From the NCBI GenBank assembly GCA_018865545.1, contig GCA_018865545.1_3633.1: a DNA stretch of 64,000 nt. One strand, 5' to 3'. Below, piece after piece: positions 36,654 through 53,087 of this stretch. A program made the translations under genes and the position numbers. The notes beneath the pieces were generated by a model. It was not told the DNA's origin, searched no databases, and saw nothing but the letters and a program-made list of their open reading frames with translations. This stretch comes from a phage. Position 1 is the stretch's first letter. Every line of letters begins with the position of its first letter.

Positions 36654-37127
36654 TCAATAATTTACTCCAGGAACAATTCTGGCTATAATTATGAAACCAA
36701 CAACAACAGAAGTTTTAAACAATTCTTTTATTGTACCTGTTTTGTATGCAGCGCATAATAAAAGAACTTCCATAAATGTTGGATATGATGAATTTATCGT
36801 GAAGCCTAATGCGTTCGGTAAAATAAATGGGAACTGCATAATTAAAATTTGGCAAAACAAAACAGGTAGAGATAGTGCAAGCATTAGCTTTTTTCTCCAT
36901 CCTGTCAAAACACATGCAGTAAAGAAAATCAGAGATATATCCAAAAACCAACAAAAAGTTAGGTAGAGTGATAAATCAAATGCGTAGATATGGGAACTGA
37001 ACCACCAGTACAATATATTCTCTATCAGGATATGAACCATGCCAAGTACTGACATGGTTCGGATACCTTTATCATTATCAAGAAGTAGCACTGCAAAGCA
37101 TATAAAGTACAGTGCAGAACTTATCAT
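36654..37127 (-). CDS. multi-pass membrane protein
   Basis: 157 aa with several hydrophobic helices. Confidence 0.4.
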   Translation of the reverse strand: MISSALYFICFAVLLLDNDKGIRTMSVLGMVHILIENILYWWFSSHIYAFDLSLYLTFCWFLDISLIFFTACVLTGWRKKLMLALSLPVLFCQILIMQFPFILPNALGFTINSSYPTFMEVLLLCAAYKTGTIKELFKTSVVVGFIIIARIVPGVNY

Positions 37128-46128: not shown

Positions 46129-46995
46129 TTACTTACCAAACTTCATAGGGTTCCCATCCAGATCTTTAAATTCCCCAGACGGAGTAAGTGTATATGACCC
46201 AACTTTCTGTAGAGAAGTAACATCATCTAAATTATGGTGTCTGCTCTCTGACCAGTTTTTCCAGAAATCAGCTTGGTCTCCAGAGTATAATGTTTTTCTA
46301 GCCATAATATCAACTTCTTGTTGGGTAGCGGATGATTGAACAGAACCTTTCTGTTTTGTTTTCCCTGACTTCTTAGGATCTGTGTAGATGGTGGCTAAAA
46401 CAGTCTTTCCTAATGTGAATGTACGGAACTCTGTAAACTCTAATTGAAAAACTAATGCCGCGCCATCTGAATTGCTACGAGATGCCTCCATTGAAGTAAG
46501 GATATAATTATCTAAGATTCTATCCTCTGTCACAAGAGTTACAATTTGTCTTTGGTCTATGAGGCGCTCAAGCACTTCCAGAGCTTTTTCTGGTCTTTTT
46601 GAAGCAGCGGGGTTCTGATTATCGGTATCTTTATCTATGTAATTAAACTGAATAATTGAAAGTGGTGATGAGCTAACCCTTGCACTAAAAGAGAATTTCC
46701 CATCTTCTATTACACCGTGATCACTAAACTTAACCCTATCTTCAACTGCATAAGAAGTCTTATCCACAGTTCTCGTATAGGAGTGTTCTTCAACAACATC
46801 AAAAATTATAGCTAAATCGTCTGTATAATTTTTATCTTTCAGTTCAATATTACGACCACCATAATTCAAACCGCTGGCAAAAAGTGTATACTTAACACCA
46901 GAGCTTGTTTCTTGTGCATTACTTACCTTTCTTTCGACATTTGCTGTAGCTTTACCTTGCTGCGGTTTTGACTGGTTATTGGAAACTGAAGCCAT
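46129..46995 (-). CDS. tail protein
   Basis: 288-aa ORF downstream of the tape-measure region. Confidence 0.35.
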   Translation of the reverse strand: MASVSNNQSKPQQGKATANVERKVSNAQETSSGVKYTLFASGLNYGGRNIELKDKNYTDDLAIIFDVVEEHSYTRTVDKTSYAVEDRVKFSDHGVIEDGKFSFSARVSSSPLSIIQFNYIDKDTDNQNPAASKRPEKALEVLERLIDQRQIVTLVTEDRILDNYILTSMEASRSNSDGAALVFQLEFTEFRTFTLGKTVLATIYTDPKKSGKTKQKGSVQSSATQQEVDIMARKTLYSGDQADFWKNWSESRHHNLDDVTSLQKVGSYTLTPSGEFKDLDGNPMKFGK

Positions 46996-47040
46996 AAGAA
47001 CCTCACTTGTTATTGTATGATTTTATCATAAATCTTTTAT

Positions 47041-47070
47041 TAAAACAACAAAAAGGGGCAAAAGCCCCTT
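47041..47070 (-). terminator. rho-independent terminator
   Basis: stem AAGGGGC/GCCCCTT with AAAA loop, then UUUGUUGUUUUA on minus strand. Confidence 0.55.
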
Positions 47071-47074
47071 CAAA

Positions 47075-48195
47075 TTATTGAGGGACAGCAAGAATAAGAT
47101 TAATGTTATCCATATTAGCTGTCTCTATTTGCTGATCAATCATATTCCGTAATTCTCCAGCATCTATTTTAATTGTTATTTCACCACTGACAGGCTCGGT
47201 AGGAATAACCATAGGAGCTACAATTTGACCCGCAGTAGATCCGCCCGGCATCAAATTATGGGATTGAAGATAGTTGGCTTTATCCTGCATATGCCCAGCC
47301 CAAAGCGATGTCCACCAACTACTTAACATCCCTCCGGTAACAGCCATTAAGTCACCACCACCAAATGAATAAGCATTTCCAAGATCTTGTTTTTTAGCGT
47401 TCTTTTCACTATCGTTGGAATTTACGTAGTCGTATCCCATAAGGGCAGCAGCAACGTAGGGATTTCGTATAGACCACCCTAGCAGCTTACCAAAAACCCC
47501 ACTTCGTTTCCCACCACCTTTCCTATCCCACGGTCCATTACCACCGCTATTACCTCCCCCAGATTTTGGTACGTCCGGCCCACCAAAAATTTCTTTAAGA
47601 ATTTTTAATGTTCCCGTTATTCCAGCAATTTTAGCCAAGATTCTGAATACTCTAACCAAGGAAGCTGCGAAGAATAGAGCACCGAGACCCCAACCTACCC
47701 AGTTAGTCGCTTTTTGGAATGTCTCACTTTTCTTTATCCATTGTGGGATATACATGTTTAATTCTGCATTTATAAAAATGCAGACATTAGATATCGTATG
47801 TGCGATATCCATAAAGCCCTTTATGAATCCAGAAGTAAATTGTCCAACTTTCTCAGCTAACGGTCCTTTAGCATCCAACATGTGGGACAAATCATTAAAC
47901 GTCTTAGTTAATTCATCCCCAAATCCACTTTCAAATATCTTATTTTGAAAGTTCATCCATGTTTGTTGTAAACGCTGCATAGCAACACGGTTGCTTTGTT
48001 GTGCCTTGGTAAGTGCACCACCTTTTCTTGCGGCCTCGGCATAATACTTAGCGACCAAAGGAAGAATTTTTGAAGCCTTTAGCTCCCCATTCTTCATCAT
48101 ATCCATTAATTTTGCAATGTCTATAGATGAATCATTGAATGCTTCTTGTGTGGCTTTAAGGAATACATCAAGGGAACCAGGGATGCCCTCGGCTA
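47075..48195 (-). CDS. tail tape measure protein, C-terminal part (putative exon 2)
   Basis: frame is open upstream of the first ATG (48106) to 48196, directly abutting the structured intron core; Gly-rich segment; 5' limit uncertain by a few nt. Confidence 0.5.
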
Positions 48196-49014
48196 CTTAT
48201 TGTCCCCTCAGTTCGCTACACTGAGGCGGTGTGCTAAAACACCCGCCACATGTTTCCATGTGGAACAGACTATATCTTCCTCTGATTTTACAGAGGCCAA
48301 CCATTTCGGAGCGGCTTCGCCCCTACTCTCCTACACTCATCGGAGATAGTCGTTGAGCACATAACTTAAAGATTTTTTAATAAACGTCGCCAAGCATTTT
48401 TATGTTTTATCCTGTGGATAGTTGATCTTGTTACACCAAACTCATTCATTAAAGATGTTGTATCCTCAAAACGCCTGTGGTAAATCCTAATAACTTGATC
48501 TTCTGTTAATTTGCAATTAGGATTTCTTTTTCCATCTACGGAGTTTAGACCTTTTGAGAAAGCATGTTTTTGGTTCTGCGACCTAGTAACATACTCCAGA
48601 TTATCTTTGTGGTTGTTGGCCTTATTACCATCTTTATGGTTAACTTCCATTTTTGGATGTGGCGGTTCACCAATGAATGTTAATGCGACTATCCTGTGTA
48701 CAAGATACAATACACACTTTCCGTCTACCCTAAAGTAAACTCTTTTATATCCATTGTGTATTGTTTGCTCAGTTAGTTTCTTCCATGTACCTCTTTTTGT
48801 TGAAAAGATTGCACCATCTTCTCGACAAAAGTACCCGTTATGTCCAGGCACGGGTCTAATCTCTAAGTTACTTCGCTGCGGATTGTCCATTGTTACATCT
48901 CCAAACTTTTTACTATACCTGAGATAGTTATTCTCAGCCATTATTATGTTACCATAATAATTTAGTATTTGGTAGCTTTAGGAGTTCCCCGCAATTAGAT
49001 TGGTTTTACAACAG
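48196..49014 (-). mobile_element. group I intron (IA-like) with HNH ORF; minimum extent, 5' splice site unresolved
   Basis: minus-strand RNA carries R-like CAACGACUA (48347-48355), S-like GAAGAUAUAGUCUG (48266-48279), GNRA-capped P9-like hairpin, P-like AAUUGCGGGG (48987-48996); GC-rich stem-dense segment 48200-48360. Confidence 0.6.
48366..48941 (-). CDS. intron-encoded HNH homing endonuclease
   Basis: NUMOD4-like N-terminus; HNH motif EVNHKDGNKANNHKDNLEY; C-terminal HTH-like region. Confidence 0.7.
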   Translation of the reverse strand: MAENNYLRYSKKFGDVTMDNPQRSNLEIRPVPGHNGYFCREDGAIFSTKRGTWKKLTEQTIHNGYKRVYFRVDGKCVLYLVHRIVALTFIGEPPHPKMEVNHKDGNKANNHKDNLEYVTRSQNQKHAFSKGLNSVDGKRNPNCKLTEDQVIRIYHRRFEDTTSLMNEFGVTRSTIHRIKHKNAWRRLLKNL

Positions 49015-50325
49015 CTAGTATGTCAACTGTTGTTTTAATTCTTCAGCCATGATCTGACCTTTACCCATCATTTGTTGGATAGCGGTAATACCACGCTGGA
49101 ATTTTACAGGATCAACCTGAAGTGCAGTAGCATATTCTGAGAAACCTTTGAACAGTTCGTCATTTTGCGCCTTGCTCAAAACACCTTTGGCAGATATGGA
49201 CATTTGGGTATAACCTTGGGCGGCGGTTTTTAAATCCAAACCCAATCTGTAAGATTGCTCCCGAACAAACTGTATTCTTTTCGCTGCTTCTTCTGAGTCA
49301 TCAGAAACCATTAACATGGTAGCTTCCATGCCTTGAAAGAATTGTCCTGTTTTCACAACACTTGCGGCAGCATTAAAAGCTCCGTATGCAGCAGAAACAC
49401 TAATTAATGTGCTACGAAGGTTTTTCAATCCTTGATCAAGAGATAGTGTATTTGCCTTAGCTTTGCGGAGTCCTGTTTCCATTGCTGCCAATTCAGCACG
49501 GAAATTAGAAGCTCTCATAGTCTGGCTTTGCATAAATCTCTTTTCCAGATCATCATAACCTTTAATTTTAGACCTGAAATCATCACCATACTTAGCACGA
49601 AGTCTTACAGCAGCATTAGCAATTGTTGATTGTTTTGCAGCCTTTATCCTTTCTGCTCTTAACGCTTCTCTTTCTTTCTTCTTATTAGCATCTTTTTCTG
49701 CCTTAATCTCATCCGCTGTTTTTTCTTTCGGAATAGATTTATGATAGCGTTCCATAGCAGAGTTCTGGGCAGCCACAAGACTTGGATCGTGACGACTATT
49801 AGGATCCCCAACAATACCAGAGGCAGACCCTGAAGACTTTCTTGCTGCAAGTTCTTGCTGCAATCTTGCTTGACGGGCAGCAGATATTTCTGGATTTGTT
49901 CCATATCCAGAACCTGTTTTTTCCATCTGCTTCAACTTTGATTTTAATGCATTATATTCTTTTTGTTCTTCAGGTGTTCTTCTGTTTGTTAGTCTGGCTA
50001 CTGCTTGCTTTCTTCTCGCGCTCTCAACTTTGGCTATTTGTTCACGAGCACGAGCTTCCTTTTTTGCCATTGCAATAGCATGTGCCGTAGATTTTGCTTG
50101 CTCTGCACGTTCAGTTTGGTGTAATCTTTTAGCTACAAGACGAGCCTCTTGCGCAGAACGTTTATAAATTGCTGCCGGATTACTTTTATTAGAAGTGAAA
50201 GCTCTGTTAGTCTTTTCCCATTCCTTCTTCAGGGATTTTATAGCTTTCATTGCACGACCGTAACTGGTGCGATCTACAGACCACTCGACAGCATTTACGG
50301 TTTTAGTTACTATGATATTCGCCAT
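49015..50325 (-). CDS. tail tape measure protein, N-terminal part (putative exon 1)
   Basis: Ala/Lys/Glu/Arg-rich coiled-coil; directly downstream of the frameshifted chaperone pair; the last 20-30 codons may be intron-encoded. Confidence 0.5.
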   Translation of the reverse strand: MANIIVTKTVNAVEWSVDRTSYGRAMKAIKSLKKEWEKTNRAFTSNKSNPAAIYKRSAQEARLVAKRLHQTERAEQAKSTAHAIAMAKKEARAREQIAKVESARRKQAVARLTNRRTPEEQKEYNALKSKLKQMEKTGSGYGTNPEISAARQARLQQELAARKSSGSASGIVGDPNSRHDPSLVAAQNSAMERYHKSIPKEKTADEIKAEKDANKKKEREALRAERIKAAKQSTIANAAVRLRAKYGDDFRSKIKGYDDLEKRFMQSQTMRASNFRAELAAMETGLRKAKANTLSLDQGLKNLRSTLISVSAAYGAFNAAASVVKTGQFFQGMEATMLMVSDDSEEAAKRIQFVREQSYRLGLDLKTAAQGYTQMSISAKGVLSKAQNDELFKGFSEYATALQVDPVKFQRGITAIQQMMGKGQIMAEELKQQLTY

Positions 50326-50334
50326 AGATTTTCC

Positions 50335-50371
50335 TCAATAAAAAAGCCAGGTTCCGAGAAGGAACCTGGCT
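50335..50371 (-). terminator. rho-independent terminator / attenuator
   Basis: 11-bp stem AGCCAGGTTCC/GGAACCTGGCT with GAGAA loop, then UUUUUU on minus strand. Confidence 0.55.
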
Positions 50372-50376
50372 TGAGA

Positions 50377-50766
50377 TTAACCTCTTCTACCTCGGCGCGA
50401 CCTATTTGCAGCGGCGGCAGCATTGGCTGCACTTTGTTCCTCTCTCTCCTGTACGTCTTGGATAAACTCTTCAATATCAAGATATTCGTTCAGTTTAAGC
50501 AGGTAGGCCATGTCAGCAGACTCAAGTGAGGAATAAGACTCACCTTTAAAACTCTTCAGAGCACGACACCACAAATAATCGAACCAAGTCAATGAGCTAT
50601 TTTTTCTTGCATAATTCATAGCTCTCAGGACAACTTTCGAAATATTAGACGGTGTTACTCCGCTTCCTCTGCCTGATCCATCGTGTTCAGTTGATGGGTC
50701 TGACCCAGGCGTCCCAGAAGATCCTGAAGGTTTGCGAAACCGTCTTTCGTGAAAAAACAGCCGTAG
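50377..50766 (-). CDS. tail assembly chaperone, -1 frame extension (GT-like product)
   Basis: -1 frame stays open for 37 codons upstream of its first ATG, overlapping the 3' end of 50655..51122. Confidence 0.5.
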   Translation of the reverse strand, partial: LRLFFHERRFRKPSGSSGTPGSDPSTEHDGSGRGSGVTPSNISKVVLRAMNYARKNSSLTWFDYLWCRALKSFKGESYSSLESADMAYLLKLNEYLDIEEFIQDVQEREEQSAANAAAAANRSRRGRRG

Positions 50767-51122
50767 TTAACCTCCAGCACTTTTGCCACGAGTTTGATAA
50801 GGTCCATCATCTTCCCTTGGAAAATATCATCAATGTCTACCTTACCTGCCATACCATCAACAGATACATCGTCCAGAATTAAGGCAAAAAGTTCTTCAAT
50901 ATTATCTTGCTCCATCTGGTCAAATAGGTATAATACTGCTGTTGGAATAGCATCAGAAAGATTCTGCCCACCAGACATAAGTGCTCCAGAAATGGATGCC
51001 ATTGGAACAGCAATATAACGTCCTATCTTAGGAATATTTTTAAATGCTTTTGTTGGGGACCAATGTGTAATAACAAAGTTGTGACCCGCTAGGTCAATTT
51101 CAGTTGTTTGTCTGATTTTCAT
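50655..51122 (-). CDS. tail assembly chaperone (G-like)
   Basis: between tube and tape-measure genes; start ATG 51122 after AGGAG (track start 51188 is GTG). Confidence 0.5.
   Translation of the reverse strand: MKIRQTTEIDLAGHNFVITHWSPTKAFKNIPKIGRYIAVPMASISGALMSGGQNLSDAIPTAVLYLFDQMEQDNIEELFALILDDVSVDGMAGKVDIDDIFQGKMMDLIKLVAKVLEVNYGCFFTKDGFANLQDLLGRLGQTHQLNTMDQAEEAE
50751..50757 (-). other. slippery heptamer U_UUU_UUC for -1 programmed ribosomal frameshift
   Basis: TTTTTTC in the zero frame as tgU UUU UUC within the overlap of the two chaperone frames. Confidence 0.5.
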
Positions 51123-51197
51123 GCACGCTCCTGCGTCTTTAGAAGTTGAACTATCCTTACGTGTATAAAGGCCACATCCATGTGGCACACGAAATTA

Positions 51198-51671
51198 TTA
51201 AATAATACCGGAAAGTCCAGCGAGGCCGAAGCCAACAGAGGACAGAGTATCAGGACTCAACCAAGCATCCAGAATACCAATTTCCCAGTCCATCTGACCA
51301 ACTTCCGTTCCGTAAGTAAGGTCAGGCTGTTTCTGAATCCATCCAATTGTACTCAAGCCCATACCTTGAGAACCTTCCAGAAGAACAGGGAAGAAAATAA
51401 GGCCAGTTACGGATGCTTGTTTTTGCCAGTTTGCTAAATTACCATTCCATGATGCTGTATTCTGAAGAGAAACCGTCATAACACCAGATTGGTTACGGGA
51501 CAGTGCAGCAGATAGCTCACCATCAACCCCCATGTGGGGGATGATATTGTCTTCATTACGGGACACAACAATTTTCGTGTCCGCTGCGAATCCTGTTACT
51601 CTTTGAGTCATCAGATACAATTTTACTTTTTTAGGGTCATATGCATACGGCGTTAGAATAGCTGTATTCAT
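51198..51671 (-). CDS. tail tube protein
   Basis: 157 aa, immediately upstream of the chaperone pair. Confidence 0.45.
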   Translation of the reverse strand: MNTAILTPYAYDPKKVKLYLMTQRVTGFAADTKIVVSRNEDNIIPHMGVDGELSAALSRNQSGVMTVSLQNTASWNGNLANWQKQASVTGLIFFPVLLEGSQGMGLSTIGWIQKQPDLTYGTEVGQMDWEIGILDAWLSPDTLSSVGFGLAGLSGII

Positions 51672-51674
51672 TTA

Positions 51675-53087
51675 TTACACTCCTGCTGTTACTGTCTGTG
51701 CGTTACCAGAATTTGAACCTGTTTTGTCCAGCATGACAGTCATACGGATCTTGACAAAATGTAGTGGTGTGTTGTATACCAGTTCCACTTTCACGTTGTT
51801 AAGTGTACGTGCTGCCAGATCGTTAGTAGGTATGCTTCCACGCAGAGGGATTGTGATTACAGGGTCGAAGAAGACCTTGTTAACCTCATCATAACCTGTT
51901 AAAATAGCTCCGTTAGAAATACCTACGTTGATAGGGTTATTCATGATGACAGACTTCAGGTTAGGGAGGTCATCATCACTCATTTTAACAGACAGCCCCA
52001 TGTTGGATCTGCGGGACATATATCCGAAAACACTTTCTTCGGTGCGGAACTTAAGCCAGTGACCAAATCTCACAACATCTACATAATTGCCGGAAGCGCA
52101 TTTGCCTTCATAGAAGGATCCTACACCATTAATCATGCGGTAGAAGTTCAGATTCTTACCCCAGATAGTCATACGTTCCGTTGCACTCAAGGTTGGAGCA
52201 ACAACCCCGTCCATAGTCTTCAGGTGGATAGAATCCCCATAGGAAGGATCATTTGAGGCCATCGCCCCGATAATTCCTCCTTCTGGATAGGCACTGTCTG
52301 CCAGCGGATCGTACATACCAATAGAGGTGTCGTATTGCAGAGCTTTCAGTTCATCTGCGATGGAATCACTATCAGCAGTTTTAGATTTTTCATCCGCAGT
52401 TGAGTAGACATGCATCTTGTAATTTGCAGCGGCGAATGCGGCGGCACTTAAGATAGATGTTTTTGTGTGTGACTCAGTGCTGACAAAATACCAGTTCTCA
52501 TTTGCGGTCATAACCTGCGGAAGAACAGAAGAAACTGTCTCATCGGAGGTATTGGTGATGACCATATTTCCGCTGTCTTTACCAACACTAAACTTGCCAC
52601 TATCTTTTGGGGCAATTGTTACTTTAGCCTCGCTTGCTGTTGCCGTAAGTACAGTCTTCAGCGTTGTATCCGCATTAATAGCGTCAGCCAGAGATGTAGC
52701 AATTGTAGAAGGCTCTGAAGATGCATTTACATTGACAAGTATGCTCTTTTGATAAGCCCCTGTCACAAAGTTTAGAGCTACAGGTGTTTCTGGGTCTGTG
52801 TTTGTCTGGTCTGTAAAATCCACAATCGTATTGGTGAAGCCTTGGCGACCAATCATCAGATATTGTGGACGGAATGTTCCAGAAAATGCCTTAGATGCAT
52901 AATTATATGCAGGTGTTCCAACAGCAAATCCATCATCAACTAATTGACTAAGTTCGGTATAAGCACGAACTCTTTCTGGGAAGATATTATGGATCGCAAG
53001 GAACAGTGGGGTTTCAAACCCTTTTGTGTCGATTGGTTGAGTACCAAGTGTGACTGTTACATCAACCACCTTGTCATTATAAGCCAT
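51675..53087 (-). CDS. tail sheath protein
   Basis: 470 aa, immediately upstream of the tube gene. Confidence 0.45.
   Translation of the reverse strand: MAYNDKVVDVTVTLGTQPIDTKGFETPLFLAIHNIFPERVRAYTELSQLVDDGFAVGTPAYNYASKAFSGTFRPQYLMIGRQGFTNTIVDFTDQTNTDPETPVALNFVTGAYQKSILVNVNASSEPSTIATSLADAINADTTLKTVLTATASEAKVTIAPKDSGKFSVGKDSGNMVITNTSDETVSSVLPQVMTANENWYFVSTESHTKTSILSAAAFAAANYKMHVYSTADEKSKTADSDSIADELKALQYDTSIGMYDPLADSAYPEGGIIGAMASNDPSYGDSIHLKTMDGVVAPTLSATERMTIWGKNLNFYRMINGVGSFYEGKCASGNYVDVVRFGHWLKFRTEESVFGYMSRRSNMGLSVKMSDDDLPNLKSVIMNNPINVGISNGAILTGYDEVNKVFFDPVITIPLRGSIPTNDLAARTLNNVKVELVYNTPLHFVKIRMTVMLDKTGSNSGNAQTVTAGV

Follow-up and report, generated by a model that had tools for sequence, protein, structure and literature searches.

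Programmed -1 ribosomal frameshifting in tail assembly chaperone (TAC) genes is a well-known phage mechanism. The lambda pair, gpG and gpGT, was reportedly described by Levin, Hendrix and Casjens in 1993 and by Xu, Hendrix and Duda in 2004, 2013 and 2014, and the lambda shift appears to need no downstream RNA structure. A myovirus example, gpE/gpE+E' of phage P2, is said to be included in the 2004 study by Xu et al.; P2 has a contractile tail and a chaperone pair encoded between the tube and tape measure genes, with a T-rich slippery site. The lambda model has been summarised, with a G:GT ratio of ~30:1 (PMC5009743). The same kind of signal is described in papers on FelixO1-like phages and on Pakpunavirus. 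In the available excerpts of a 2025 paper, a -1 programmed frameshift with an invariant GTTTTT is proposed for the TAC genes of Vandenendeviridae (Pakpunavirus Adele) and Andersonviridae, families that its authors regard as related to Vequintavirinae (PMC12846349); an analysis of the Vequintavirinae locus itself was not found in these excerpts. Within the literature searched, we found no description of a frameshift or fusion protein in Vequintavirinae, and the paper on the rV5 genome and proteome mentions neither a frameshift nor the G and T proteins.

Here we describe a Vequintavirinae locus, contained in a 64,000-nucleotide stretch of phage DNA (the window), that most probably carries a lambda G/GT-type programmed -1 ribosomal frameshift in its tail assembly chaperone gene. 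As in lambda, the major tail/tube gene and the tape measure gene are separated by two overlapping ORFs, of which the second is read in the -1 frame, and G carries a canonical heptamer close to its 3' end. By this likeness, a low-level fusion made in a fixed ratio with G would be expected here too.

Gene order and reading frames of the chaperone locus

The window locus is 98.4-98.6% identical to the Escherichia phages Av-05, 18-1-2 and vB_EcoM_TH18 (Vequintavirinae, genus Avunavirus), and the region is 82% identical to PVP-SE1-like phages and at most 77% identical to Klebsiella, Erwinia and rV5-like members. Judged from its sequence, the source phage is an Avunavirus (Vequintavirinae) myophage of E. 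coli, belonging to the rV5 group and close to Av-05. All features discussed here lie on the minus strand, in the order sheath, tube, chaperone G, T (in the -1 frame), hairpin and tape measure gene, and the sheath-tube-G-T-tape measure synteny is common to the window and every relative examined. The tail sheath gene (51675..53087, 470 aa) matches phrog_205 (E 4e-110) and is labelled tail sheath in Av-05 and PVP-SE1. The tail tube gene (51198..51671, 157 aa) matches PF11681 (E 9.5e-8) and phrog_280, and is found between the sheath and chaperone genes in all relatives. On the other side of the locus, the 5' part of the tape measure gene (49021..50325, with the gene start at 50325) matches phrog_5255 positions 1-431 (E 2e-199) and PF20155, and is 98% identical to residues 1-435 of the Av-05 tape measure protein.

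The zero-frame ORF, G, occupies 50655..51122 with its stop codon included and encodes 155 aa. It begins at an ATG at 51122, preceded by GGAG, and ends with a TAA at 50657-50655. Its product matches the Pfam family PF21822 Phage_TAC_15 (E 1.7e-30) and phrog_3840 (E 9.7e-71), and by these assignments G is a tail assembly chaperone. An AlphaFold model of G (pLDDT 69) resembles predicted viral TACs in BFVD, the fold matches including a 212-aa 'tape measure chaperone' of Citrobacter phage Moogle. Among solved structures there is no significant match, as Foldseek on the PDB gives E >= 0.86 and phmmer returns nothing. The confidently modeled core of G stops at about residue 124, which is the position of the slip site.

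The zero frame and an open -1 frame overlap at 50655..50767, as seen by ORF reading, for 113 nt or ~37 codons. The -1 frame is open from 50767 to a stop at 50379-50377, and its upstream stop, a TAA, lies just three codons 5' of the slippery heptamer U_UUU_UUC (50751..50757). The zero-frame codons around the site are AAC TAC GGC TGT TTT TTC ACG; after a -1 slip they would continue as CAC GAA AGA CGG TTT to give ...NYGCFF-HERRF.... Past the slip site, 124 codons are open in the -1 frame versus 31 remaining in the zero frame. The first-pass annotation had placed the chaperone ORF at 50655-51122, its overlap of ~37 codons with a -1 ORF running to 50377, and U_UUU_UUC at 50751-50757 in the correct register; all three are confirmed, by the start, stop and family matches of G, by the measured 113 nt, and by the codons TGT TTT TTC. 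In E. coli, UUU and UUC are both read by one tRNA-Phe. The motif U_UU.U_UU.C is among the efficient -1 frameshift motifs in that host (PMC4066793).

The -1-frame extension, T (50377..50751, 124 aa and a stop), matches phrog_10409 (E 5e-46). It consists of a Gly/Ser-rich linker of ~30 aa for which disorder is predicted and, after it, a conserved helical domain. A PDB sequence search with T gave no significant match, and T has no Pfam family. The predicted GT product, join(51122..50751, 50751..50377), has 248 aa (27-28 kDa) and the junction peptide VLEVNYGCFFHER, and VLEVNYGCFFTK is a peptide of G. G and T were modeled separately. The confidence of the T model is moderate to low (pLDDT 61) and it was not used for fold search, and a MAFFT alignment of the artificial fusion with homologues was misaligned and discarded.

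Conservation of the slip site and of nearby elements

The locus was gathered from 24 further sources, comprising GenBank phages found by megablast and tblastn, IMG/VR contigs, and metagenomic contigs chosen because they encode distant homologues of G. Searching for related loci with G alone returned close relatives only, and tblastn of a phage collection was used instead, giving a two-frame match in 586 phage records.

T_TTT_TTC is present at the homologous codon, within the motif ...LEVN(Y/F)G.FF, in every Vequintavirinae genus sampled (Avunavirus, Seunavirus, Mydovirus, Henunavirus, Vequintavirus and Certrevirus), as seen in Av-05, PVP-SE1, 4MG, BIS47, Erwinia phage pEp_SNUABM_01, rV5-like phages, PcCB7V and SSBI34. 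Outside this subfamily, the site is kept in the Stephanstirmvirinae VEcB, muut and ZCKP1, in Aeromonas phage PhAER-3, in the Ounavirinae FelixO1 and humlepung, and in three metagenomic contigs. The heptamer and the open -1 frame are thus retained down to ~28-35% protein identity. Every relative carrying the site keeps the -1 frame free of stops from the heptamer through to where T ends, and the +1 frame is closed in 12/12 loci checked. Immediately after the site, the -1 peptide reads RFRKPSGSSG in the window, VFRIPSGDSG in Rheinheimera phage Barba5S (Barbavirus), and RFRK or RFRR in others. In Barba5S the T-run itself is lost (HYGCLTSGKSF) and G_GGA_AAG is found in register three codons on. 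One metagenomic contig, L024, has C_CCT_TTT (five T, CCCTTTTT), and another, L028, has T_TTT_TTT.

Conservation is also visible at the nucleotide level. In a megablast comparison with distant rV5-like phages, only window positions 50722-50777 matched, an island that surrounds the site and is 87-89% identical. Codons 115-131 have a synonymous-codon identity of 0.70, against 0.45 in the remainder of G (Mann-Whitney p = 5.6e-5, an optimistic value as the compared sequences are phylogenetically related). The site had been likened at first pass to the conserved G/GT-type frameshift at the tube/tape-measure position, and gene order, TAC family, register and conservation all support that assignment.

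A candidate upstream stimulator is the Shine-Dalgarno (SD)-like sequence GGAGG at 50771..50775, 13 nt 5' of the heptamer. SD-like stimulators of -1 shifting act 6-17 nt upstream (PMC4066793). Most lineages, FelixO1 and four metagenomic relatives among them, have GGAGG, GAGG or GGAG at 13-14 nt; the four without it are BIS47, PcCB7V, SSBI34 and Barba5S. GGAGG is rare in the ORFs of the window (7.2e-4 per nt), and the Glu codon within the element is GAG in 15/17 sequences, GAG being the minor Glu codon (39%). It is plausible that GGAGG stimulates slippage, though its role is uncertain because the element shares its bases with conserved Leu-Glu-Val codons and four lineages lack it.

Downstream of the heptamer, we searched for a stimulatory structure. 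The 91 nt past it fold no better than shuffled sequences (z = +0.50), RNAalifold on nine relatives gives -2.5 kcal/mol without convincing covariation, and an Rfam scan of 46900-51300 shows nothing at the slip site. At 9 nt downstream, a small GGUUU/AAACC hairpin falls within dual-coding sequence and is not counted as a supported feature. Accordingly, no supported hairpin or pseudoknot of the dnaX kind is seen 5-9 nt 3' of the heptamer. Since there is no conserved downstream structure, the efficiency of the shift may be low.

A different element is found after T, where a hairpin and T-run span 50338..50372. The 12-bp stem (50372-50344, seven G-C pairs) starts 5 nt past the T stop, before the tape measure start, and is followed by TTTTTATT. 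PVP-SE1, BIS47, Erwinia phage pEp_SNUABM_01, rV5-like phages, PcCB7V and SSBI34 all keep the hairpin, with compensatory changes in its stem; in the loci compared it is absent from Stephanstirmvirinae and FelixO1. It has the form of an intrinsic terminator, with a G+C-rich stem-loop and a T-run directly after it, 3' of a stop codon, and on this form we class it as terminator-like, lying where the chaperone genes end and before the tape measure gene. An Rfam match of the L10 leader over the hairpin (E 0.18) is taken as chance. The first-pass annotation had noted a strong hairpin at 50345-50371 after the extended frame; the hairpin is indeed present, but it follows the slip site by ~380 nt, too far for a frameshift stimulator, and was rejected as part of the signal. 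Its position after T rather than after G fits with T belonging to the chaperone cistron.

Taken together, we infer the following course of events. Most ribosomes would finish G (155 aa) at the stop at 50655, and a minority would slip by -1 on U_UUU_UUC with tRNA-Phe on UUU in the P site and on UUC in the A site. The slipped ribosomes would then read the -1 frame to 50377, producing a 248-aa GT made up of the whole folded core of G (residues 1-124), the flexible Gly/Ser-rich linker and the small helical T domain. Slippage would probably be aided by GGAGG 13 nt upstream pairing with 16S rRNA, as in dnaX, and not by downstream RNA structure. If lambda is a guide, G and GT, at a fixed ratio in which G predominates, would together cover the tape measure protein and bring in tube subunits, and the division of labor that we infer is that the G parts would bind the tape measure protein while T would recruit the tube protein. 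Neither G nor GT would be expected to stay in the virion.

Alternative explanations for the extension

The most resilient alternative, which we nonetheless consider improbable, is that G and T are two separate genes, with T made from an internal start (ATG 50619) and the heptamer a by-product of a conserved Cys-Phe-Phe. In the window, Av-05, PVP-SE1 and 4MG, an in-frame ATG does precede the conserved T domain, and a weak GAGAG stands shortly before this ATG. A joined CDS is given in none of the 17 GenBank/RefSeq records inspected (Vequintavirinae, Stephanstirmvirinae and others); T appears in all 17 either as a separate 'hypothetical protein' with an arbitrary start or not at all. No natural in-frame G-T fusions were found among homologues in a collection of 5.8 billion proteins, queried with the fusion and with T alone, where G matches are ~150-160 aa and T matches 68-130 aa long. 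Two proteins, P0011 and P0075, were considered as G-T fusions and rejected, being G with a longer tail or an N-terminal extension.

Against separate genes, the start of T is poorly conserved. ATG 50619 is replaced by an Ile or Ser codon in BIS47, Erwinia phage pEp_SNUABM_01, rV5-like phages and others, and the first ATG of the T frame lies at residue 14 at the earliest and residue 105 at the latest, often falling within or after the conserved domain (rV5-like phages, BIS47 and VEcB). Gene callers report inconsistent T starts (ATG, GTG or TTG) or leave a gap of ~300 nt, as in slur16 and muut, where T is not annotated. Meanwhile, the -1-frame peptides RFRKPSG... and ISKVV.RA are conserved from directly past the heptamer, well upstream of any start. 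A linker peptide upstream of Met 50619, such as KPSGSSGTPGSDPSTEHDGSGR, could not come from independent initiation. The linker, measured from the slip site to the conserved W(F/Y)D motif, falls into at least ten length classes, seven of them in the part past the G stop, yet every class is in frame and stop-free. The heptamer also does not behave as a by-product of its amino acids: the base at its X position stays T under Cys (TGT), Pro (CCT), Ser (AGT) and Asn (AAT), and two lineages have swapped the heptamer for another canonical one. On these comparisons, T lacks a conserved start codon and is not a free-standing gene, although some independent T initiation from ATG 50619 may occur in the window and PVP-SE1.

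Less probable again is transcriptional slippage, in which RNA polymerase adds a U within the T6 run so that some mRNAs encode G and T in frame. Cases of one-base insertion at U or A runs are reviewed by Atkins et al. (PMC5009743). The conserved T-run is a homopolymer of six T (seven in L028), and one added base would give the same protein. However, efficient slippage by bacterial RNA polymerase generally needs runs of ~8-9 nt or more, of which six T falls short. Furthermore, the run is not lengthened among relatives, the last base of the heptamer being C in 16/18 sequences, and both GGGAAAG in Barba5S and CCCTTTTT in L024 are unsuited to the polymerase but are canonical ribosomal heptamers in register. 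The conserved SD-like element upstream, at a spacing that acts on ribosomes, likewise points to the ribosome.

The heptamer by itself is weak evidence and not significant. In the window, 74 long ORFs with 18,756 codons hold 102 in-frame XXXYYYZ heptamers, a rate of 0.54% per codon, and the chance of at least one in a 37-codon overlap is ~18%. What lends the finding weight is the long -1 ORF and, more than anything, the conservation seen in relatives. This site has the longest -1 extension among the 102 heptamers (124 codons, the next being 57), and it is the only one whose -1 frame continues far beyond the zero-frame stop. A chance or relict arrangement with no functional recoding, T being non-coding or decaying, is scarcely credible: a heptamer is expected in that share of overlaps this long, but a -1 frame like this one is unique in the window, the T domain is strongly conserved (28 invariant columns across 16 sequences), and the layout persists across several phage subfamilies.

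Implications and comparison with known systems

With a programmed -1 ribosomal frameshift as the preferred reading, the T region ought to be annotated as a joined CDS for a 248-aa GT chaperone. Recoding or codon-optimizing TGT TTT TTC is predicted to abolish GT and hence tail assembly, a warning that applies to engineering because Vequintavirinae-type phages serve as therapeutic and biocontrol candidates. The locus adds an example of G/GT that is deeply conserved at the nucleotide level, with natural heptamer swaps and a candidate SD-like stimulator.

A more speculative reading, toward which we are rather doubtful, is that GGAGG and U_UUU_UUC, 13 nt apart and without downstream structure, form a bipartite cassette whose nucleotide sequence has been preserved since Vequintavirinae, Stephanstirmvirinae, Ounavirinae and related myophages last shared an ancestor. 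Lineages without the SD-like element (Mydovirus, Certrevirus and Barbavirus) or with a swapped heptamer would then have retuned their G:GT ratio. If so, they would provide a natural allelic series for SD-anti-SD control of frameshift efficiency in phage assembly.

Of the known systems, FelixO1 is similar at the level of the protein and the site. Its G is homologous to that of the window (28.7% identity by tblastn), and the 212-aa Moogle protein is a fold match. FelixO1 and humlepung both have T_TTT_TTC at ...N(Y/F)G.FF, GGAGG 13 nt upstream and an open -1 frame. The FelixO1-like phages differ in belonging to another subfamily (Ounavirinae), in having a shorter G and T, in a T domain that is barely alignable, and in lacking a terminator-like hairpin after T. 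The cases in the available excerpts of PMC12846349 are argued in the same way, from a -1 frame that all alleles leave open and from a poly-T motif conserved at the 3' end of TAC-N, and the window sequence TGTTTTTTC contains GTTTTT, the motif that these excerpts give for the TAC genes of Pakpunavirus Adele and Andersonviridae.

The E. coli dnaX site (A_AAA_AAG) resembles the present one in having an SD-like sequence upstream at a stimulatory spacing, here 13 nt and in a putative role. In contrast, dnaX has a strong downstream hairpin and its shift shortens the product, whereas here there is no downstream structure and the shift would extend it. To our knowledge, the P2 proteins are unrelated to those of the window at the sequence level. 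Lambda is a siphovirus that uses G_GGA_AAG, whereas the window comes from a myovirus with U_UUU_UUC; the two share no detectable sequence similarity, and a candidate SD-like stimulator lies upstream of the site here. The GT chaperone of the window is thus very probably an unannotated case of this well-known phage mechanism, leaving the known picture unchanged.

An insertion in the tape measure gene

About 840 nt of inserted sequence (49032-48193, minus strand) split the tape measure gene, which runs from 50325 to 47075 on the same strand. The close relative Av-05 lacks this insertion, its tape measure protein being encoded by a single open reading frame (ORF) of 793 aa. Within the insertion lies a minus-strand ORF for an HNH endonuclease (48941-48366; PF13392), and the segment 48461-48246 matches group I introns in Rfam with a sub-threshold score (32.3 bits, E = 1.4e-5). 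The whole insertion was found in no record among the 50,697 phage genomes searched. Its 3' 160 nt share 98% identity with an intron of the closest relatives, the Escherichia phages TH18 and 18-1-2, namely with the 3' end of the first intron in their terminase large-subunit gene. The insertion is probably a group I intron that encodes a homing endonuclease and has spread to a gene new to it.

Other sequence elements in the window

A perfect inverted repeat, GCCACAT..ATGTGGC, is found on the minus strand at 51186-51171, directly 3' of the tail tube gene, in the gap that separates the stop of that gene (51198) from the start of the chaperone gene (51122). The repeat was not reported by the terminator scan because its loop is too short and its T-run poor. 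It could act as a weak terminator or an RNA-stability hairpin that reduces expression of the chaperone relative to the tube.

Another in-frame heptamer, A_AAA_AAG, occurs at 36894 on the minus strand, within an ORF encoding a hydrophobic protein of 157 aa (37127-36654). At 57 codons, its -1 extension ranks second in length in the window; a shift into that frame at 36894 would yield a shorter product. This heptamer is probably incidental. A_AAA_AAG is the most efficient slippery heptamer in E. coli.

Comparison with related loci

Between 18 and 24 GenBank records labelled as Campylobacter jejuni phages match the locus exactly as the rV5-like E. coli phages do. These include MG065635, MG065644, MG065652, MG065661, MG065672 and MG065677, among others, under names such as Campylobacter phage A141, A147, C9, C11, C12 and A13b. 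The genomes are about 137-143 kb, some of the records are unannotated, and protein identity is 57.8%. The Campylobacter host labels of these records appear doubtful.

The adjacency of the -1-frame ORF (T) and the tape measure gene, otherwise universal, is broken in Barbavirus, where a 'putative DNA binding protein' gene on the opposite strand lies between the two (1426-2064 in L016, the locus of Rheinheimera phage Barba5S). A distant relative on the metagenomic contig SRR5998773_1807 (L026, 1263-1300) carries the heptamer region AAATTTTTTC followed about 8 nt 3' by a 6-bp hairpin, AGGAGG...CCTCCT. This hairpin, which has no counterpart in the window, is a possible downstream stimulator specific to that lineage.
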